The notes under the pieces: generated by a model
Database searches by the model: none
The model's input: only the letters and a program-made list of their open reading frames with translations
Told to the model about the DNA's origin: nothing
Origin: Candidatus Nanohaloarchaea archaeon
GTDB lineage: Archaea; Nanohalarchaeota; Nanosalinia; Nanosalinales; Nanosalinaceae
Reading direction: 5' to 3'
DNA length: 10,206 nt
NCBI GenBank assembly: GCA_042218325.1
Contig: JBDGRE010000003.1
Coordinates: 1-10,206, forward strand
Made by a program: the position numbers and the translations under genes
Shown: positions 1,728 to 8,574 of the stretch, in pieces
Layout of the letters: the number at the start of each line of letters is the position of its first letter
Position numbering within the stretch: position 1 is the first letter of the stretch

Positions 1728-1896
1728 ACCCGCTGCTTTTCCCTTGTCTAATTTAAGCTTTCCAACAACTATTTCTATTATCCGAAAGCCGCTGGAGCGC
1801 TTAGCGCGGAACGCGGTTTGACGACTCGGTGAACTGTGTTCACACAATCGAGTGGACCTACAGCCCATCGAGCCCATCAAAAATATTGCCGGGATG

Positions 1897-1942
1897 CGAA
1901 ACTCGTAAGAGTTTCTGTATCCAAGGCAAATCTGCGATTTGC
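1897..1942. repeat. Twin-hairpin cassette copy A (tRNA-Ser 5' leader)
   Basis: GAAACTC-GTAA-GAGTTTC (1898-1915), 10-nt spacer TGTATCCAAG, GCAAATC-TGC-GATTTGC (1926-1942); flanked by direct repeat TTGCCGGGATG at 1886-1896 and 1939-1949. Confidence 0.6.
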
Positions 1943-2172
1943 CGGGATGACGGAGTCTGGCTGAACGTGCCGGTCTTGAGCCTTAAGAGGGAGCCCATCC
2001 TCTTCACGGTCATTCAGGTTCCATCCTCGCTACCGCTCGGATCCAGATTATTTCGGGATTCGACCGTGAGGGGAATGGAGCACGAATGACCGTGAAGCCG
2101 GAGCAATCCGGGTTAAGGTGGATAACCGGTGGGGCGTGACGCCCCTCCTGGGTTCAAATCCCAGTCCCGGCG
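1941..2172 (+). tRNA. tRNA-Ser(TGA) with 143-nt intron at 37/38 (intron 1981-2123)
   Basis: Acceptor GCCGGGA/TCCCGGC with G73; anticodon stem CCGGT/ACCGG; anticodon TGA at 1977-1979; long variable arm GGGGCG-TGA-CGCCCC; T arm CTGGG-TTCAAAT-CCCAG. The tuf-rps10-tRNA-Ser order is common in archaea. Confidence 0.93.
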
Positions 2173-2306
2173 AACTTACCTTCGTGGTCGTGAAGAGCTT
2201 TGCTCTTCGGCCGGTGAAACCGGCCCTGTTGATGAAACTGACAGCAGTTTCTTCCAGCCCCGGCGACTTCGCTACATATTTAATCGACTATCACGGTTTC
2301 TCGGTT

Positions 2307-2720
2307 ATGGGTAAGACCGCCCGCGAACTGATGGATGAACCGGATTTCATAGACGCCGACGCGCCGGTCGGAGACGTGGAGAAAGAGTTCCAGGGATCCG
2401 AGAACACGTTGATAGTCAGGAGAGACGGAGAAGTAATCGGTGAGATACACGAGAACTCTCTACTCAAGCTGCTGATACCCGAGGAAAGACTGGACGAGGA
2501 ACGGGTCATCGGAATCCTCGGGTTCGCATTCGACTCCAGTTATGTCGCAGAGAAAGCTGAAGACTTGATGAACCGGCACGAGGTTACCGTGTCTCCAGAT
2601 GAGGATATAGACGAGATAGCATTTCTCATGGACCGGGAAGACGTAAGGGCCGTACCGGTCGAAGACGGCGGCGATATAGTGGGAGTGGTGCACGAGAACA
2701 GGATGATGGAGGAGATATAG
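2307..2720 (+). CDS. CBS-domain pair protein
   Basis: 137 aa from ATG 2307; the ORF-track start at 2118 lies inside the tRNA. CBS-like motifs ARELM, VIGEIHENSLL, AEDLM and AVPVEDGGDIVGVV; TATA-like ATATTTAAT at 2276-2284; stop overlaps the antiporter GTG. Confidence 0.88.
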   Translation: MGKTARELMDEPDFIDADAPVGDVEKEFQGSENTLIVRRDGEVIGEIHENSLLKLLIPEERLDEERVIGILGFAFDSSYVAEKAEDLMNRHEVTVSPDEDIDEIAFLMDREDVRAVPVEDGGDIVGVVHENRMMEEI

Positions 2721-3895
2721 TGGCCGGCATCAGCACATCTATACTTTTCAACTTGGCCGTGCTGCTTTCCGCCTCTTTCATAGTCGGCGAGTTATTCGAG
2801 CGCATCGGACTGGAATCTATAATAGGATATATCGTCACAGGCCTGCTTCTCGGCCCTGACCTGCTGGATCTCGTGCAGCCGGAGGCTATGGCGGGCTTCG
2901 GCACCATCGGAGCCACGCTGATTCTTTTCCAGGCCGGCCTAAGAGAGGAGAACGTGGCGGATATCTTCCGGCACGAGGAAGGGCTTGACCTCGGGCTGGC
3001 CGTACTGATCGCACCGTTTATCTTCATACTCGCCACCCTACTCGTCCTGGGACCGAGATTCCTGCCTTATACAGGGCTTCAGGAGTTCGTCTTCATCGCT
3101 CTCGCCTACGCGGTCGTCGATATAGGAGTTCCGTCGAAGCTGATGCTGTCGAAGAATCTGCTCGAGGAGGAAACCGGGAAATACACGATAAAGTCATCCG
3201 TCATCAACGTGACAGCGGGACTGGCGGTGCTTACCGTCCTCGTCATGCTGTCCTCGTCCACGATCGGAAGCGTGATGGCCAAGGCCGGAGGTATACTCGG
3301 GTTCACGCTGCTGTTCTTCCTGCTGCACGAGTTCGTACACAGGCTGGACGACTACATCATAATGTTCGAAGAGGTGGAGGCCGAGTTCGCGATAACCTTC
3401 GCGCTGCTGCTTTTCATGGCCTATCTCACCGAGCTCGTAGGCCTCTCCAGCGTGCTCGGGGCGTTCTTCGCTGGAATCATAGTTTCGCGCTCCGACTTCT
3501 CGGATTCACGGGCCTTCCAGGAGAAGATAAACGCTATCGGAGAGGGGCTGTTCATCCCGCTATTCTTCGCCTGGTTCGGCCTCGGCCTGAAGCTGTTCGG
3601 CGATGCAGGCATGATAGCCAACATAGAGGCCGCTTTCTTCCTCTTCGCTCTTTCGACAGTCTCGAAATTCGGTACCGGCTATCTGGTGACCCGTAACCAC
3701 GGGAAGGATAAACCGTTCATGATTTCCTCATCACTGTTAAGCCTGGACATAGAAACGCTGGTCATACTGCTGATAGGAATCGATCTCGGCGTCTTCGGTT
3801 CCGAGATACTCCAGATATTCGCCCCATCAGTCCTTTTCTCCACGATAACCATAGTGCTGCTCTACAGCCTGCTGGAAAGGACTGGTAGAGCCTAA
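2720..3895 (+). CDS. Cation:proton antiporter, CPA2 family (NapA/Kef-like)
   Basis: 391 aa multi-TM protein; GYIVTGLLLGP, ILFQAGL, GLSSVLGAFFAGII and FIPLFFAWFGL motifs typical of Na+(K+)/H+ exchangers. Confidence 0.9.
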   Translation: MAGISTSILFNLAVLLSASFIVGELFERIGLESIIGYIVTGLLLGPDLLDLVQPEAMAGFGTIGATLILFQAGLREENVADIFRHEEGLDLGLAVLIAPFIFILATLLVLGPRFLPYTGLQEFVFIALAYAVVDIGVPSKLMLSKNLLEEETGKYTIKSSVINVTAGLAVLTVLVMLSSSTIGSVMAKAGGILGFTLLFFLLHEFVHRLDDYIIMFEEVEAEFAITFALLLFMAYLTELVGLSSVLGAFFAGIIVSRSDFSDSRAFQEKINAIGEGLFIPLFFAWFGLGLKLFGDAGMIANIEAAFFLFALSTVSKFGTGYLVTRNHGKDKPFMISSSLLSLDIETLVILLIGIDLGVFGSEILQIFAPSVLFSTITIVLLYSLLERTGRA

Positions 3896-3934
3896 AAAGA
3901 TTCTCCCCGGTACTTGTTACACCAGACAGTTCGA

Positions 3935-4007
3935 AGCCCCCTGGGGTAGCGGTCAATCCTACCAGCTTCTGGGGCTGGTGACACAGGTTCGAATCCTGTG
4001 GGGGCTA
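3935..4007 (+). tRNA. tRNA-Gln(CTG), intronless
   Basis: Acceptor AGCCCCC/GGGGGCT with the A1-U72 pair of archaeal tRNA-Gln; CCAGC-TTCTGGG-GCTGG anticodon arm (CTG 3969-3971); ACAGG-TTCGAAT-CCTGT T arm. Confidence 0.96.
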
Positions 4008-4070
4008 AACCAGTTTTTACTCTCTGGACACAACATATAAAAGCGTCGTGCCAAATGACTGCCTGTGAAG

Positions 4071-4271
4071 ATGACAGAGTGCAAAATATGCGGAAGGACT
4101 GAGGACGAGCTCGAGGAAGAGTTCGGCCGCGAGATACCTGTTAAGGAGCATGAAGGACTGAAGAAGTGCCAGAAGTGCCTCAGCGAGTACCAGAGAGAGA
4201 CTGGCGAAACCTCTACTTCAGAGGGCGAAGAGGAATCCGAGGCCGACTGGAAGAAAGCAGTCACGGCATAA
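4071..4271 (+). CDS. Small acidic putative zinc-finger protein (CKIC...CQKC)
   Basis: 66 aa from ATG 4071; two CxxC motifs; acidic composition like the host proteins; TATA-like CATATAAA near 4034-4041. Confidence 0.75.
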   Translation: MTECKICGRTEDELEEEFGREIPVKEHEGLKKCQKCLSEYQRETGETSTSEGEEESEADWKKAVTA

Positions 4272-4303
4272 AGTTCAAATCCTTTCTCCACACTCTCTGC
4301 GGT

Positions 4304-4651
4304 ATGGAATCCGCCAGCAACTACCTCCGAATCATCTACCGCTTGACATCCGGCGGCGAAGGTAACACCACGACCTCAGAGGTAGCTGCTGCATCCGGAG
4401 TATCGGACGCCAGCGCCTCAGAGGCCATACAGAAACTGGAAGAGAAGGACCTCGTTTGCCGGGCACCTTACAGAGAGTTCACACTCAGCCCTATCGGAAA
4501 GGAGAAGGGAGAGGATCTGGCGCGCAAACACGAGATACTGGAAGAGTTCTTCGAGAGCGTGGAAGCAGAAAACCCTGCCGAAGAGGCGGACGCCGCCGAG
4601 CACGCCGTCTCCCTGGAGGCAGCGAAGAAGATAGAGGAACACATACAGTAG
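4304..4651 (+). CDS. DtxR/MntR-family metal-dependent transcriptional regulator (short form, no FeoA domain)
   Basis: 115 aa from ATG 4304; NYLRIIYRL, HTH TTSEVAAASGVSDASASEAIQKL, wing PYREFTLSPIG, RKHEILEEFF and EEADAAEH metal-site motifs. Confidence 0.92.
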   Translation: MESASNYLRIIYRLTSGGEGNTTTSEVAAASGVSDASASEAIQKLEEKDLVCRAPYREFTLSPIGKEKGEDLARKHEILEEFFESVEAENPAEEADAAEHAVSLEAAKKIEEHIQ

Positions 4652-4696
4652 CCGGTTTCTTAAGTCTTGGAAAAGCTCCAATCTATAGAAGCAGAT

Positions 4697-4830
4697 AGCC
4701 CCCTGGTGTAGCGGTCAATCATAGCGGCCTTTGGAACCTCAAGGTTCCTGCTTGGAACCAGGGAACGAGAAAACCGCCAGGTTTTCGATAAAGATAGCCG
4801 CTGACCCAGGTTCGAATCCTGGGGGGGCTA
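4697..4830 (+). tRNA. tRNA-Gln(TTG) with 61-nt intron at 37/38 (intron 4735-4795)
   Basis: Acceptor AGCCCCC/GGGGGCT; anticodon stem GCGGC/GCCGC; TTG at 4731-4733; BHB-type central helix CTTT(4729-4732)/AAAG(4790-4793) with 3' bulge AT|A. Confidence 0.94.
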
Positions 4831-4997
4831 TACTGCCTGTATCCGACAGTCTCTTCATGCCGGGGGGGCCCGTGACGTGCACGAGGCCAAGTTTTTCACA
4901 CATCTCCAGAGCTCTTTCGCGCCGGCGAAGCTCCAGATTTCCCCGGTCAGACTTCAGCGGGACAGATTGAAATACGGGGAGCCCAGAAACTTTCGTC

Positions 4998-5417
4998 GTG
5001 GAAAACTCTCACAGCATAACTGCAGCCTCGCTTGTGCTGGGCTCTATACTTGCAGCAGCAGGTTTCACACTGGTCGGAATATCCAGCTTCGCCGGGGAGC
5101 CGTTGATGGCGGCTTCCGGCTTCCTCTCGTTCGTACTGGGCTACAAGATATCCTGGTACGGGACACACACCATCAGAACCATGGAAGAACTCCGAAACGA
5201 GATGGAAGGTGCGCGTAACCAGTTTTTCGGCCATGTGGAGCGTAACCTCGGGAACTACGCGCTGATAACGCTGGGACTGGGGATGGCGGCGCACGGCACA
5301 ACGTTATTCGCACAGGTCATAACCCGTTTCCAGACACCAGAAGCAGTTCTTTCGGGACTACTCTGCACCACCGGCTACATGCTCGCACACGAAGGCGTCA
5401 ACGAGGTGCTGATATGA
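4998..5417 (+). CDS. Hypothetical membrane protein (about 4 TM)
   Basis: 139 aa, GTG start, four hydrophobic segments; TATA-like TTGAAATA about 25 nt upstream; ATGA overlap with the next gene. Confidence 0.7.
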   Translation: MENSHSITAASLVLGSILAAAGFTLVGISSFAGEPLMAASGFLSFVLGYKISWYGTHTIRTMEELRNEMEGARNQFFGHVERNLGNYALITLGLGMAAHGTTLFAQVITRFQTPEAVLSGLLCTTGYMLAHEGVNEVLI

Positions 5418-5830
5418 CACGGGGCCAGCTGAAGAAACACCTATTTTTCAGCCTCAGTATGACGTTTACCTCGTTCTTCCTGGCCTTCTCGTCTCTAATG
5501 GCGAGAAAAGGTGAGCCCTGGATGATGTTCGGGGCCACCCTGCTCATGTGGTCCGGCTATCTGGTTTCACACAGGATAGAGACCGGAAGGTTCATAGACG
5601 GCAAACCTGTAGAAGACGAAACGCGGGAAGGAAAAGACAGCAAAGTCCTTCCTCGAGGCCCTGATGAGGTGATCGGAAGCCTGATTGGCGGCGCCGTCTT
5701 CATCAGCGGGATGCTGCTCGGCACGTATGGGCTGCGCCAGTTGAACCTGGCTATCACATTTGCGGCCGCCGTGGTCTTCCTCACCGGGTACGTTATCATG
5801 CACTACGCCGGGACCGGAGAACTGCTCTAG
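5414..5830 (+). CDS. Hypothetical membrane protein (about 4 TM), probable paralog of the upstream gene
   Basis: 138 aa; two internal repeats ending GYLVSHRIETGRFI and GYVIMHYAGTGELL. Confidence 0.75.
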   Translation: MTRGQLKKHLFFSLSMTFTSFFLAFSSLMARKGEPWMMFGATLLMWSGYLVSHRIETGRFIDGKPVEDETREGKDSKVLPRGPDEVIGSLIGGAVFISGMLLGTYGLRQLNLAITFAAAVVFLTGYVIMHYAGTGELL

Positions 5831-5868
5831 CCTGACAAATCTTAAAGTTTCGCATCGACAAGAGACAC

Positions 5869-6150
5869 ATGACAGAGATACGCGCATCGCACATCCTCGT
5901 CGACAACGAGGAGCACGCCGACCAGATCAAGCTTGAACTGGAGAGAAGCGACAAAACCTTCGCGGAGCTCGCGGAGGAGAAGTCTGAAGGACCTTCCGCG
6001 GATAACGGCGGCGACCTCGGCTTCTTCGGCCGCGGCGACATGGTCAAGCCTTTCGAGAAGAAGGCCTTCGAGCTCGACGTCGGAGAGGTCTCCGAGCCTG
6101 TAAAGACGGAGTTCGGGTGGCACCTCATCCGAAAAACCGACGAACGGTAG
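5869..6150 (+). CDS. ppiC: Parvulin (PpiC-type peptidyl-prolyl cis-trans isomerase)
   Basis: 93 aa; [34 protein letters not shown] and [13 protein letters not shown] motifs. Confidence 0.96.
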
Positions 6151-6188
6151 TCGTTTTTCTGGTGACGCCGAAAATCTTCGATTTTCAA
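6130..6188. repeat. Twin-hairpin cassette copy B with duplicated parvulin 3' end
   Basis: GAAAAA(C)CGAC/GTCGTTTTTC hairpin, 10-nt spacer TGGTGACGCC, GAAAATC-TTC-GATTTTC (6170-6186); diverged direct repeat 6127-6162 vs 6190-6226. Confidence 0.7.
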
Positions 6189-6259
6189 TATCAAGAAGAC
6201 CGACGAGAGATAGCCGTTTTTTCTGGCCAACAGGTAGGCGGCTGCCCGGCCTTACCACC

Positions 6260-6267
6260 TTTATAAA
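6260..6267 (+). promoter_or_regulatory. Putative TATA box of the rps13-rps4-rps11-rpoD operon
   Basis: TTTATAAA about 30 nt upstream of ATG 6297. Confidence 0.55.
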
Positions 6268-6296
6268 ATTTGCAGGGAATTCTGAGAGTACGGATT

Positions 6297-6785
6297 ATGT
6301 CCGAGACAAAAGAAATCGTAAGAATCGCGAGAACCGACATCGACGGCACCCAGCCTGTAGCGAAAGCCATAACCTCGCTACGGGGCGTCGGAGATGTCTA
6401 CGGTAACGCGGTCGCGGAAGCCACAGATATAGATATAGAGACAAAAATCGGCGACCTCGACGAGGAGGAAATCGACGATATCGAGGAACTCATCAAGAAC
6501 CCTGAAGACGCAGGGATTCCCGAATGGCTCAGGAACCGGAGAAAGGACCGCGAGACGGGTGAAGACAACCACCTAATAGGCTCGGACCTCGAACTCAAGG
6601 AAGAGTTCGATATCAGGCGCCTCAAGGAGATAGACTCCTACAAGGGCTGGAGACACGAGATCGGTCTCCCCGTCAGAGGCCAGAAAACCAAGTCCTCGTT
6701 CCGTTCCGGCTCCAAGGTCGGAGTATCACGCGCACGCCTGAGAGAGGAAGCCGCAGAAGGCGGCGGAGAAGAGGAGGAAGAATAA
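6297..6785 (+). CDS. rps13: 30S ribosomal protein uS13
   Basis: 162 aa from ATG 6297; IVRIARTDIDG, IPEWLRNRRKDRETG and SYKGWRHEIGLPVRGQKTKS motifs. Confidence 0.98.
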   Translation: MSETKEIVRIARTDIDGTQPVAKAITSLRGVGDVYGNAVAEATDIDIETKIGDLDEEEIDDIEELIKNPEDAGIPEWLRNRRKDRETGEDNHLIGSDLELKEEFDIRRLKEIDSYKGWRHEIGLPVRGQKTKSSFRSGSKVGVSRARLREEAAEGGGEEEEE

Positions 6786-6787
6786 TG

Positions 6788-6843
6788 TTCGAAAATCATA
6801 GATTTTCTGGACTCGCAGAAAACGCCGAAGGTGTTTTCGAGTG
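6788..6843. repeat. Twin-hairpin cassette copy C between rps13 and rps4
   Basis: GAAAATC-ATA-GATTTTC (6791-6807), 10-nt spacer TGGACTCGCA, GAAAACGCC-GAA-GGTGTTTTC (6818-6838); terminal inverted repeat TCGAAAA/TTTTCGA; TG on both sides. Confidence 0.7.
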
Positions 6844-7413
6844 GTAAAGAAACTGAAGAAGCAGTACGACACTCCGAACGAGGGCTGGGACGAGGAACGT
6901 ATCAACCGTGAAATCCAGCTCATGGACGACTACGGTCTCACGAACAAGCGCGAGATTTACAAGGCGCAGAGCCAGCTACGCGACCTTCGACAGGAGGCCC
7001 GTGAACTGGTAGCGTCCGAGAACGAGACTGAGAGAAAGGAGCTGATCGAGAAAGCCAACAGGCTGGGCCTTGTAAGAGATAATGCCGGGCTTGAAGACAT
7101 ACTATCGCTCAACCTCACCGACCTGCTCGACCGGAGGCTGCAGACCGCCGTCAACAGGCGCGGCTACACCGACACGGTCAGGGAGGCACGCCAGCTCGTG
7201 GTCCACGGACACTTATACGTCGACGGGCAGCGCGTGAACGTCCCCGGATACCTGCTGACACAGGAAGAAGAGAAAGAAATCGAAGTCAGGAGGCCAGAGC
7301 CCTCTGAAGAACAGGAAGAGAAGGAAACAGAGGAAGCAGGCGAAGAAGAGCAGGAAGATGAAACAGAGTCTGAAAAACCGGAAGAAACAGCAGACGAGGA
7401 AGAGGAGGAATAG
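6841..7413 (+). CDS. rps4: 30S ribosomal protein uS4 with acidic C-terminal tail
   Basis: KKQYDTP, YGLTNKREI, LLDRRLQT and ARQLVVHGH..VDG..VNVPGY motifs; GTG start preceded by AGGTG at 6829-6833. Confidence 0.97.
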   Translation: MVKKLKKQYDTPNEGWDEERINREIQLMDDYGLTNKREIYKAQSQLRDLRQEARELVASENETERKELIEKANRLGLVRDNAGLEDILSLNLTDLLDRRLQTAVNRRGYTDTVREARQLVVHGHLYVDGQRVNVPGYLLTQEEEKEIEVRRPEPSEEQEEKETEEAGEEEQEDETESEKPEETADEEEEE

Positions 7414-8417: not shown

Positions 8418-8551
8418 GCCGGGGTTGCCGAGCCAGGCCAAAGGCGACGGACTCAAGAACTCAGGTTCTCGACCTCCGAAGAACGAGGACCAAGAGTTAG
8501 GAGGCATCCGTTCCCGTAGAGGGTTCCGGAGTTCAAATCTCCGCCCCGGCA
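8418..8551 (+). tRNA. tRNA-Leu(CAA) with 48-nt intron at 37/38 (intron 8458-8505)
   Basis: Acceptor GCCGGGG/CCCCGGC with A73; anticodon stem ACGGA/TCCGT; CAA at 8454-8456; long variable arm; CGGAG-TTCAAAT-CTCCG T arm; relaxed BHB (CTC/GAG, bulge GC|A, intron stem AACTC/GAGTT). Confidence 0.94.
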
Positions 8552-8574
8552 AACCGATACCTGCACCAGACCTG

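Follow-up and report, generated by a model that had tools for sequence, protein, structure and literature searches.

Results

Twin hairpins at gene and tRNA boundaries

Three short loci, copies A, B and C, in a nanohaloarchaeal stretch of 10,206 nt (the window) raise the question of what kind of element sits at gene and tRNA boundaries and leaves the host gene intact. The sequence-only reading had taken them for a dispersed family of twin-hairpin cassettes. All three were located where it had placed them, and RNA folding returned the two predicted hairpins in each, with z-scores of −4.6, −2.4 and −3.4, respectively, computed against 200 shuffles (Table 1). As had been claimed, the host gene or tRNA stays intact through its duplicated ends, the first copy still completing it.

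Table 1. Positions of cassette components and neighbouring host features in the window.
Feature	Position	Strand	Basis
Copy A X1, upstream copy of tRNA-Ser 5' end, TTGCCGGGATG	1886..1896	+	11/11 identical to 1939-1949
Copy A hairpin 1, canonical, GAAACTC-GTAA-GAGTTTC	1898..1915	+	hairpin scan, RNA fold
Copy A 10-nt spacer, TGTATCCAAG	1916..1925	+	read from sequence
Copy A hairpin 2, GCAAATC-TGC-GATTTGC	1926..1942	+	RNA fold
tRNA-Ser(UGA), intron ~158 nt (~1981-2138)	1941..2172	+	by eye; orthologues aligned
tRNA-Ser trailer cassette, hairpins 2192-2208, 2209-2225, 2234-2251	2192..2251	+	RNA fold z = −3.75
Downstream copy of tRNA-Ser 3' end, CCAGCCCCGGCGA vs CCAGTCCCGGCGA at 2161-2173	2254..2266	+	12/13 match
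Family-type hairpin in tRNA-Gln(UUG) intron, GAAAACC-GCCA-GGTTTTC	4769..4786	+	hairpin scan, RNA fold
Copy B X1, last 8 PPIase codons (IRKTDER*) and 3' arm of terminal stem-loop	6127..6162	+	direct-repeat search, RNA fold
Copy B canonical hairpin, GAAAATC-TTC-GATTTTC	6170..6186	+	hairpin scan, RNA fold
Copy B X2, untranslated second gene end (would read IKKTDER*) and T-rich tail	6190..6226	+	repeat of 6127-6162
Copy C relay frame, 20-codon open frame	6785..6847	+	read from sequence
Copy C hairpin 1, GAAAATC-ATA-GATTTTC	6791..6807	+	hairpin scan, RNA fold
Copy C spacer, TGGACTCGCA	6808..6817	+	accepts further twin cassette in related strain
Copy C hairpin 2 (6818-6838), GAAAAC-GCCGAAGGT-GTTTTC, then GA and S4 GTG start	6818..6843	+	RNA fold

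Copy A adjoins a tRNA-Ser(UGA) gene that neither ARAGORN nor Rfam called. In the RNA fold the 3' part of X1 pairs with the spacer and lengthens hairpin 1 to a 13-bp stem, and hairpin 2 shares its final two bases with the tRNA itself, as G1 and C2. Relatives of the spacer (TGTATATCCA, TGTATGCCCA) were found at unrelated loci. A cassette was present at the tRNA-Ser 5' end in 9/20 anchor matches, and in at least 8 genera the copy A cassette remains with the gene, also after gene relocation; in these comparisons it resembles a retained leader rather than junk. Both arms of hairpin 2 have changed in orthologues with pairing kept (GCAGATT/AATCTGC and GCAAATAC/GTATTTGC). Such compensatory changes are evidence for structural selection on the stem. 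The tRNA-Ser trailer, previously described as a looser version, does belong to the family but is a full cassette: three hairpins, behind which the tRNA 3' end is repeated. According to aligned orthologues, the C variant in that copy would pair with the GCCGGGG acceptor of other genera.

Copy B has one canonical hairpin; the other hairpin attributed to it proved to be the PPIase gene's own terminal stem-loop, which lies within the duplicated unit. The repeat has a period of 63 nt, and X2 differs from X1 in 4 codons (3 synonymous changes and one R/K). Among 11 loci of the PPIase gene end, five had hairpin and duplication, one the duplication only, two the stem only and three were bare. One of them (L011) carries three copies of the last 8 codons, all reading IKKTDER* with purely synonymous differences, and its middle copy with flank is similar to the L005 unit; in another (L013) 5 codons differ, all synonymously. 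In 5/5 stem-bearing loci the Leu codon (CTC or CTG) changes in step with TGGTGA or TGGTCA, and the U.G wobbles of this stem can be read in the sense strand only.

Copy C shows a second layout. Its relay frame opens with an ATG that overlaps the S13 stop codon (TAATG) and ends in a stop 1 nt past the S4 GTG start; the loop of hairpin 2 contains the ribosome-binding-like sequence GAAGGT. This hairpin 2 design was found again in at least 12 MAG copies. The relay-frame layout is common to the five start-codon copies read in the host genome (window C, C2:3031, C1:96936, C1:98719 and C32:37925) and is also present in MAG copies.

Abundance and placement in the host genome

The genome carrying the window (G000) is 96% complete. 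Among its 753 perfect 7-bp hairpins the two most frequent stems were GAAAATC (15) and GAAACTC (9), against at most 2 copies per stem in a shuffled genome. Loosely defined family hairpins numbered 101 against 11-16 in five shuffles, and adjacent hairpin pairs 22 against 0 in one shuffle. Further copies above the shuffled background therefore exist, and the idea of a dispersed non-coding repeat family, with the transposase absent from the window, was borne out. The family is modular, with hairpins of 17-25 nt and stems GAAAATC/GATTTTC, GAAACTC/GAGTTTC and their kin. The 10-nt spacer starting with TG, which had been regarded as exact, is the modal class (8/22 pairs, 7 of the 8 with TG) but not a fixed length: a second class of 5 nt accounts for 4/22 pairs, three of them TGCAA, and further lengths exist.

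Gene interiors are avoided by 33 of the 34 core loci; among 5000 random positions, 71% fell inside genes. A flanking direct repeat was found at 10/34 core loci (p≤0.05, with 400 random anchors as null), every one of them at the end of a tRNA or gene.

Distribution across the phylum

The exact GAAAATC hairpin occurred in 52/70 Nanohaloarchaeota genomes and the GAAACTC hairpin in 45/70, and their counts co-vary across the 70 genomes. A reversed-pattern control for GAAAATC gave 0 in 69/70. A 22-base twin motif searched in 185,579 species gave 21 matches, 18 of them in Nanohalo* records or 'uncultured archaeon' MAGs. GAAAATC-nnn-GATTTTC palindromes do exist in further archaeal genomes, as the sequence-only reading had suggested, but in the genomes searched they are essentially limited to this phylum. 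Neither main hairpin was found in 14/70 genomes, including ones that are 99%, 96% and 96% complete. Within genera the copy number ranged from 0 to 20 (for example 9 vs 0 and 0, and 20 vs 1 and 0).

Gain, loss and nesting

Filled and empty alleles both exist, among orthologous sites of different genera and in a strain about 97% identical to the window. In the contig of that strain (X4 record 19; also in X3) position 6135 is joined to 6199 at copy B, and exactly 63 nt, the hairpin and one repeat unit, are missing; 8 letters are shared at the junction. This difference could have arisen by deletion in a filled ancestor instead of by insertion. At the tRNA-Met 3' end, 6/14 loci in three families have a hairpin and a duplicated 3' end; the stems there are GAAAATC, GAAGATC, GAAGCTC and CGAACTT, with the matching 3' arm in every case. 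In distant lineages X1 and X2 of tRNA-Met loci are identical (23/23 and 27/27), which could reflect gene conversion rather than recent insertion.

Cassettes also occur inside cassettes. A related contig has a 40-nt twin cassette within the copy C spacer, with 11 nt (6809-6819) exactly duplicated on its two sides. By eye, about 35/40 positions of this insert are identical to part of a cassette in the host genome (C12:33468-33563), and the junctions of this fresh insertion, also read by eye, fit template switching as a possible route. Nested twin cassettes were found in copy A orthologues of G001 (flanks CGAAACTC/CGGAACTC) and G009. We infer cassette mobility from these presence/absence patterns.

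Discussion

Alternative explanations

The hairpins could instead be host RNA signals for transcript-end processing or stabilising, intercistronic coupling or tRNA leaders and trailers, read by a conserved protein, with turnover as ordinary regulatory evolution via local duplication and without transposition. Stems identical throughout the phylum with freely varying loops, compensatory changes in orthologues, the sense-strand G.U pairs of the PPIase stem, placement that coincides exactly with RNA termini (both ends of tRNAs, introns, stop and start codons) and the Shine-Dalgarno-like sequence and start codon integral to copy C hairpin 2 all point this way. The exact stems and compensatory changes would also be expected of a host-functional RNA or DNA signal. 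We nevertheless consider this explanation unlikely, given the near-complete genomes that lack both main hairpins, the congeners with 0 and with 9-20 copies, and the S13/S4, PPIase-end and tRNA-Met junctions, all essential, where most relatives have no cassette. It is further weakened by nesting and by gains or losses between strains, and the untranslated second gene ends have no obvious regulatory role.

The cassettes might alternatively be PATE-like derivatives of IS200/IS605 elements, moved as single-stranded DNA by the Y1 transposase TnpA in trans. Like PATEs they have two subterminal-type hairpins and little else. The genome with the top copy numbers (28 and 18), G055, contains one IS200/IS605 copy (L067) with a canonical twin cassette (GAAACTCC..GGAGTTTC, TGGAAACACA, GGAAATC-AAA-GATTTCC) on its left, separated from tnpA by 60 nt on the upstream side; beyond the tnpB remnant follows TGAAATC-ACCTG-GATTTCA, a hairpin of GAAATC type. 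This association is a lead from a single locus, and the cassette adjoining tnpA may be another start-region copy. The IS element of G039 (L066) has end hairpins unrelated to the family. Mobilisation by a Y1/HUH nuclease, as had been suggested, found no support in the distribution of Y1_Tnp, which had no match in G000 and matched only 4/70 phylum genomes (one copy broken) against 52/70 with the hairpin; 66/70 genomes lack the transposase, among them 48 that bear hairpins. In addition, IS200/IS605 insertion makes no target duplication, whereas the cassettes carry duplications of 2-39 nt, and in an informal comparison their sites seem to be set by gene ends and not by a fixed tetranucleotide. We therefore regard this origin as improbable. 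The searches detected no mobilising enzyme for the cassettes, and we know of no transposase that matches duplication lengths of 2-39 nt.

It is slightly more doubtful still that the cassettes are intron-like, cut from RNA between equivalent points of the direct copies by the tRNA splicing endonuclease or another activity, with both copies used and kinship to the mobile tRNA introns of this lineage. A family hairpin does lie within the tRNA-Gln(UUG) intron, in a related strain tRNA-Gln(CUG) carries 62 inserted nt where an intron canonically sits, and the tRNA-Ser intron is absent from some related contigs (1980 joined to 2139). RF00005 finds just 24 tRNAs in the 96%-complete G000, many with long inserts, and the second gene-end copies are intact with mostly synonymous changes, as expected if both were read. 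Against this, no bulge-helix-bulge motif was seen by eye at the cassette boundaries, and splicing is unneeded where the first copy already is a complete gene or tRNA.

Least credible are attL/attR-type integrase scars whose element body was lost and whose hairpins are leftover arm or binding sites: G000 has 7 tyrosine integrase genes above the Pfam cut-off and a hairpin adjoins orphan tRNA 3' fragments ending ..CCTGCCA at C5:62688, C16:56370 and C2:59922, but the host duplicates differ locus by locus (tRNA 5' ends, tRNA 3' ends, start codons, PPIase end), merely 40-95 nt separate the repeats, no integrase lies near the window copies and nesting inside another cassette is not integrase-like.

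Comparison with known systems

The cassettes are an undescribed family of REP/MITE/MIRU-like kind; a literature search found no published description. With REPs, BIMEs and REPINs they share short palindromes with a conserved stem and free loop, a gene-less location between operon genes or at gene ends, alternating-type arrays with set spacers and conservation within a taxon. No RAYT or Y1 gene accompanies them, however, and REPs lack duplicated or recoded gene ends and relay frames. Mycobacterial interspersed repetitive units (MIRUs) are operon repeats of tens of nucleotides in which a small frame overlaps the flanking stop and start and relays translation, as in copy C and its kin. MIRUs differ in that they are direct repeats in tandem that lack a conserved hairpin design, are not known from tRNA ends, are not known to duplicate gene ends and belong to another host domain.

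Rickettsia palindromic elements are likewise palindromic mini-repeats, stop-free in frames and hence tolerated in a reduced genome; they are 100-150 nt long and insert inside ORFs, whereas 33/34 core cassette loci avoid gene interiors. Mobile endonuclease ORFs and prophages that replace a gene end, as at Allomyces atp6 or E. coli icd, are kilobases long and encode their own moving enzyme. As in these cases, a synonymously different end completes the gene and the displaced native end lies downstream (L011, L013 and the window), but the cassette insert is only ~45-65 nt and encodes nothing. In mitochondria with double-hairpin elements, such as those of Allomyces, gene-end duplication is reportedly tied to endonuclease ORFs and not to the hairpin elements themselves. 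Fungal-mitochondrial double-hairpin elements and GC clusters and sponge-mitochondrial repetitive hairpin-forming elements (PMC4478555, PMC2800124) are also enzyme-less two-hairpin units of tens of nucleotides in compact genomes, intergenic or intronic, with mobility deduced from presence/absence. Their sequences are unrelated to the cassettes and their hosts are organelles.

Proposed explanation

We favour, with a probability of roughly 0.55, the explanation that the three window loci belong to a phylum-wide set of gene-less, modular, mobile or expandable hairpin cassettes of Nanohaloarchaeota. The unit is a hairpin of 17-25 nt with a free loop and a stem that is always GAA...TTC (GAAAATC, GAAACTC, GAAGATT, GAAGCTC and others), usually paired to ~45-57 nt through a linker of 10 nt (TG...CA) or 5 nt (mostly TGCAA). 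At gene and tRNA ends the host end stands as a direct repeat of 11-39 nt on either side of the cassette, and its first copy completes the gene or tRNA. At start codons the cassette brings a relay frame of ~20 codons, a GTG or ATG start and, within its second hairpin, a ribosome-binding-like sequence, and ribosomes would be passed to the downstream gene.

The stems are presumably held by selection, probably in sense RNA and probably via a conserved factor that reads them. Spread within a genome may proceed by microhomology-guided copy-choice, with template switching at shared GAA/TTC arm ends, or alternatively by some putative nuclease acting in trans. Homologous recombination importing a foreign gene-end version together with its cassette could account for spread between lineages, and recombination between the two direct copies for loss. 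On this explanation the cassettes are REP/MITE/MIRU-like DNA, mobile or expandable, which is gained, nested and lost between strains and genera and would persist solely where they are harmless, at gene and tRNA boundaries.

Twin-hairpin cassettes and tRNA genes of the window

The sequence-only reading had described three twin-hairpin cassettes in the window. They lie at the 5' end of tRNA-Ser (copy A), the end of the PPIase gene (copy B) and the S13/S4 junction (copy C). All three are present and each folds as two hairpins, with z-scores of −4.6, −2.4 and −3.4 for A, B and C, respectively. The duplicated pieces of host sequence reported for copy A (11 nt) and copy B (about 36 nt of the PPIase gene end) were found as well. 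At copy A the first direct copy (X1) is TTGCCGGGATG and the second (X2) is the start of tRNA-Ser, a gene that carries a cassette at its 3' end also. A cmscan search of the window against Rfam (E ≤ 1) gave no match at copies A-C; apart from two tRNAs, its only match was to an miRNA, by chance, at 2003-2096 within the tRNA-Ser intron.

The window opens contig C23 of G000 and covers its first 10,206 bases. G000 is an archaeal genome of 1.07 Mb in 35 contigs that is 96% complete, in which a crude self-trained gene call placed 1176 genes (87% coding). It includes genes for EF-1alpha, S10, a CBS protein, a Na+/H+ exchanger, a DtxR-like repressor, a parvulin-type PPIase, S13, S4, S11, RpoD, L18e, L13 and S9. 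The end of the S4 gene (7303-7411) encodes an acidic, Glu-rich tail that is repeated imperfectly. ARAGORN detected one tRNA in the window and Rfam two; three of the five tRNA genes read there escaped one or both tools, and RF00005 gave only 24 tRNAs over the 96% complete genome.

The tRNA-Ser intron folds as a long hairpin with arms at 1995-2011 and 2062-2078, and contigs of related organisms skip the intron (1981-2138) altogether. Contigs of a related strain have 62 extra letters at 3972/3973 in tRNA-Gln(CUG), exactly at the canonical intron position, and this difference is presence or absence of an intron at strain level. Elsewhere in G000, family hairpins are followed directly by orphan tRNA 3' fragments that end in ..CCTGCCA and lack an upstream 5' half. 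Those on contigs C5 and C16 are followed by a shared element of about 50 nt (GCAATTGCA...GGAAACTGCCGA). The orphan fragments may be att-like sites or pieces of split tRNAs.

Coordinates of cassettes, tRNA genes and related features (window positions unless a G000 contig, C1 to C32, or a locus of a related genome is named)
Feature	Position	Strand	Remarks
Copy A	hairpin 1 1898-1915; spacer 1916-1925; hairpin 2 1926-1942		X1 1886-1896; X2 1939-1949
Copy B	canonical hairpin 6170-6186		between PPIase-end copies 6127-6162 and 6190-6226 (36/37 nt); period 63 nt
Copy C	hairpins 6791-6807 and 6818-6838		between S13 stop and S4 start
tRNA-Ser(UGA)	1941-2172		intron ~158 nt (~1981-2138); by eye; missed by ARAGORN and Rfam
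tRNA-Gln(CUG)	3935-4007		no intron in the window
tRNA-Leu(CAA)	~8420-8552		intron ~47 nt; by eye; undetected by ARAGORN and Rfam
Start-codon copies read in G000	window copy C; C2:3031; C1:96936; C1:98719; C32:37925		C2:3031 lies before S4e
Orphan tRNA 3' fragments	C5:62650-62800; C16:56250-56560; C2:59922	minus (C16)	
DUF123 (GIY-YIG-like) gene	C1:193620-193961	minus	query matches 53/70 phylum genomes
IS200/IS605 hairpins, locus L067	twin cassette 1357-1405; hairpin 2945-2963		second hairpin GAAATC-type, at far side

Copy number, placement and distribution of the family

An exact search of G000 for GAAAnnC-loop-GnnTTTC returned 27 hairpins, one site being counted twice, and 25 of the stems were GAAAATC (15) or GAAACTC (10). 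These are the two commonest stems among the 753 perfect 7-bp hairpins of the genome; a shuffled genome contained 441 such hairpins with at most two copies per stem. Under a looser definition 101 hairpins were found, against 11-16 in five shuffles, so that further copies exist well above shuffled-sequence background. Related stems in G000 are GAAGATT, GAAGCTC, GAAACTT and GAAACCT. Twenty-two adjacent hairpin pairs were counted, and none in the shuffled sequence. The 10-nt spacer starting with TG that had been regarded as fixed occurs in part of them only: the spacer is 10 nt long in eight pairs, seven of which start with TG, but 5 nt in four (TGCAA in three) and of other lengths in the rest. 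Loops are variable, and the longer 'loops' are palindromic themselves and lengthen the stem, which argues for a true hairpin and against two spaced half-sites. Three further sites, C1:96013, C15:9696 and C31:54350, share a different conserved module, in which GAAACTT-loop-AAGTTTC precedes ATCAC.. and a second stem (..CAGC..GCTGAACGCAC at two of the sites); it is possibly a small RNA gene family.

As is typical of REP sequences, these short conserved palindromes are scattered through intergenic DNA. By the crude gene call, 33 of the 34 core loci avoid gene interiors, whereas 71% of 5000 random placements fell inside. The 33 comprise 24 that are intergenic or on a boundary, six less than 120 nt from a detected tRNA and three less than 60 nt from a predicted start; the sole 'interior' locus adjoins undetected tRNA-like 3' ends.

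Distribution was determined by exact-pattern searches with a reversed-pattern control in the 70 genomes of the order, which make up the whole phylum in this collection. The GAAAATC hairpin is found in 52 genomes at 1-28 copies each (control, 0 in 69 of 70) and the GAAACTC hairpin in 45, with counts that co-vary. Counts peak in one genome, G055, at 28 and 18. Neither type occurs in 14 genomes, including some that are 99%, 96%, 96%, 92%, 91% and 91% complete, and copy number differs sharply within genera (0 versus 9; 0 or 1 versus 20). A 22-base twin pattern searched in 185,579 species gave 21 matches: 13 with Nanohalo* titles, five 'uncultured archaeon' and three bacterial. The bacterial matches, one in a Nitrospirae MAG and two in one Elizabethkingia genome, all lack the second family hairpin and were treated as unrelated. 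The two Elizabethkingia meningoseptica loci (L099 and L101) are near-identical copies of a repeat containing GAAAATC-nnn-GATTTTC-TGTATGGTCA-GAAAA, probably an unrelated bacterial repeat. In the literature searched, no description of the family was found, and no family hairpin was found among the published ncRNAs of a cultivated nanohaloarchaeon (PMC10266531).

Start-codon copies and end copies

Two layouts were recognized. In the five start-codon copies read in G000 the order is ATG, one codon, hairpin 1, linker, hairpin 2 (loop GAGGT or GGAGGT), GA and then the GTG or ATG of the gene. An open frame of 19-20 codons (the relay frame) passes through the cassette in all five and ends on the gene start, as (G/A)TGA or, in the window, as GTGGTAA, where the frame occupies 6785-6847 and its ATG overlaps the S13 stop (TAATG). 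The design is repeated in at least 12 MAG copies. In six of the relatives examined, S13 is followed immediately by the ATG-GTA-AAG of S4. A small ORF overlapping the stop and start of its neighbours is shared with MIRU repeats. MIRUs are tandem direct repeats of one unit, variable in number; here too the number of modules varies, but the modules are different hairpin types.

In end copies the end of a tRNA or gene is present twice in direct orientation, with a hairpin or an array in between. Compared with 400 random anchors, a flanking direct repeat was significant at 10 of the 34 core loci (p ≤ 0.05), six of them at p ≤ 0.01. At the four tRNA 3'-end loci, among nine testable loci in all, part of the T-loop region occurs once more between the repeats, in inverted form (p ≤ 0.02). 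An inverted host-end copy as a general rule is supported at these four loci only. A host origin for all second hairpins was considered and dropped: the inverted arm at the PPIase end belongs to the terminal stem that is duplicated there, and the second hairpin of start-codon copies looks element-borne.

Filled, empty and nested sites

The window was compared with contigs that the same study had obtained from other samples. A 1793-nt contig with about 97% identity covers 4803-6135 and continues at 6199-6662; therefore exactly one repeat period (63 nt) is missing at copy B. Eight letters are shared at the joint, which is identical in a second run, and the short allele joins the left portion of X1 to the right portion of X2. 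This allele either arose by deletion, through recombination within ACCGACGA, or represents an unoccupied site; the change could have gone in either direction. Another contig has 40 extra letters within the spacer of copy C, with 6809-6819 duplicated exactly at the flanks. This insert is a twin cassette about 35/40 identical (by eye) to part of an array at C12:33468-33563, and its junctions fall at AGA and TTTC, the arm ends common to all family hairpins.

Empty and filled versions of orthologous sites, as sought, were both found at the PPIase, tRNA-Ser and tRNA-Met loci. Among 11 PPIase ends compared across genera, five are filled, one has the duplication without a canonical hairpin, two have the stem only and three, including one of the same genus, are bare. 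The tRNA-Ser 5' cassette occurs at 9 of 20 anchor matches and in addition in genome G006, and the tRNA-Met 3' cassette at 6 of 14 loci, over three families. Cassettes also nest: in genome G001 a 46-nt twin cassette lies within hairpin 1 of the copy A orthologue, between CGAAACTC and CGGAACTC, and in genome G009 a different one lies in hairpin 2.

Conservation of stems and duplicated ends

In the orthologues of copy A both hairpins are kept through changes in both arms: hairpin 1 reads GAAACTC/GAGTTTC or GAAAACTC/GAGTTTTC, and hairpin 2 GCAAATC/GATTTGC, GCAGATT/AATCTGC or GCAAATAC/GTATTTGC. Arms were compared by folding each sequence, MAFFT having misregistered the A-run of hairpin 1 in two of eight rows. 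Seven of ten folds had z ≤ −3.3; two were weak (G003a and G023), and three had slightly shifted coordinates. X1 tracks the 5' sequence of the host tRNA (GCCGGGATG or GCCGGAG..). The stems of the tRNA-Met cassette (GAAAATC, GAAGATC, GAAGCTC and CGAACTT) all have a matching 3' arm, and its X2 always carries the T-stem variant of the genome in which it lies. In the downstream copy of the tRNA-Ser 3' end, one base would pair with the acceptor variant found in other genera.

At the PPIase end a Leu codon, CTC/CTG, pairs with TGGTGA/TGGTCA in all five loci that have the terminal stem, whose conserved U.G wobbles exist in the sense strand only. A host RNA signal is a possible but doubtful reading of the family; the stems are kept, and the sites are filled in some relatives and bare in others.

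The untranslated second copies of the PPIase end show no decay. Locus L011 has three copies, all IKKTDER* with synonymous differences only, the middle copy and its flank resembling the unit of L005 from another genus. Five codons differ at L013, all synonymously; the copies in the window have three synonymous differences and one R/K, those of L003 one synonymous and two non-synonymous, and those of L006 one non-synonymous. Since the differences are mostly synonymous, most of the divergence arose under protein constraint. The pattern is consistent with cassettes that pass from lineage to lineage and carry a copy of the gene end with them.

Relation to known elements

The proposal of a Y1/HUH nuclease as mobiliser has to be rejected as a general explanation: Y1_Tnp (PF01797) gave no match in G000 at E ≤ 0.1 and is present in 4 of the 70 genomes. 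TnpB matches in G000 were sub-threshold only. A GIY-YIG nuclease was also considered and rejected, as G000 has only one, single-copy gene of DUF123 type, adjoining no cassette; DUF123 occurs in 41 of the 52 hairpin-bearing genomes and in 12 of the 18 others and thus does not track the hairpin.

Descent of the cassettes from IS200/IS605 is unlikely. The expected co-occurrence was seen at one IS200/IS605 copy of G055 (locus L067, with tnpA and a decayed tnpB), where a family twin cassette precedes tnpA by 60 nt and a related hairpin lies on the other side, but the end hairpins of the element in genome G039 are unrelated; we regard L067 as a single-locus lead. The PATEs of IS200/IS605 have end hairpins recognized by TnpA, which was not found in G000, and they insert 3' of a fixed 4-5-nt target with no target duplication, whereas the family has significant flanking duplications at 10 of 34 loci. 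MITEs share terminal inverted repeats with an autonomous IS, and no parent element was found in G000; their target duplications are of fixed length, whereas here they measure about 2-6, 7-8, 11, 13, 23, 27 and 36-39 nt. Dispersed intergenic palindromes are shared with the REP/REPIN-RAYT system, but a cognate RAYT gene was not found in G000. The original REP/MITE-like assignment holds for the way the family works, like REP, MITE and MIRU repeats, but not for its parts: neither a RAYT nor a transposase was found, the target duplications vary in length, and the modules do not appear to be tandem.

Intron-like removal of the cassettes is very unlikely. By eye, no bulge-helix-bulge motif (BHB or relaxed hBH; both splice sites in 3-nt bulges 4 bp apart) was seen at copies A-C and the tRNA-Met cassette. 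That the duplicated ends are att scars is extremely improbable, as integrative elements carry an integrase and a body between their repeats, whereas only 40-95 nt are found here, with no integrase in the window and none of the seven integrases of G000 adjoining a cassette.

Discussion

We interpret the family, with a probability of roughly 55%, as mobile hairpin cassettes, enzyme-less or mobilised in trans, whose stems are under selection and which are tolerated because the gene or tRNA that they interrupt is kept or replaced. Copying would most likely proceed by copy-choice at the shared GAA/TTC arm ends, as suggested by one junction, that of the copy C insert. A further reading is possible but rather unlikely. 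The cassettes could be a new kind of enzyme-less, structure-driven mobile element that copies itself by hairpin-induced template switching at GAA/TTC arm ends, lands where DNA encodes RNA termini, takes a copy of the host end along and crosses between genera as a unit of 'gene-end replacement'. Its modules would also build the tRNA introns of this lineage, so that archaeal tRNA introns would owe their origin and mobility to a dispersed hairpin repeat.

The cassettes have consequences for annotation: because of them standard finders miss tRNA genes, spurious small ORFs are called and start codons are misplaced. Nanohaloarchaeota genomes are about 1 Mb in size and 87% coding, with overlapping genes, and a repeat that spreads in them must spare essential operons. 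The family combines two solutions, an extra copy of the gene or tRNA end and a translational relay frame with its own start signals, with no recognisable enzyme. If copying does occur by copy-choice at hairpins, the cassettes would be a minimal model for the rise and persistence of palindromic repeats in reduced genomes and a possible source of tRNA introns.
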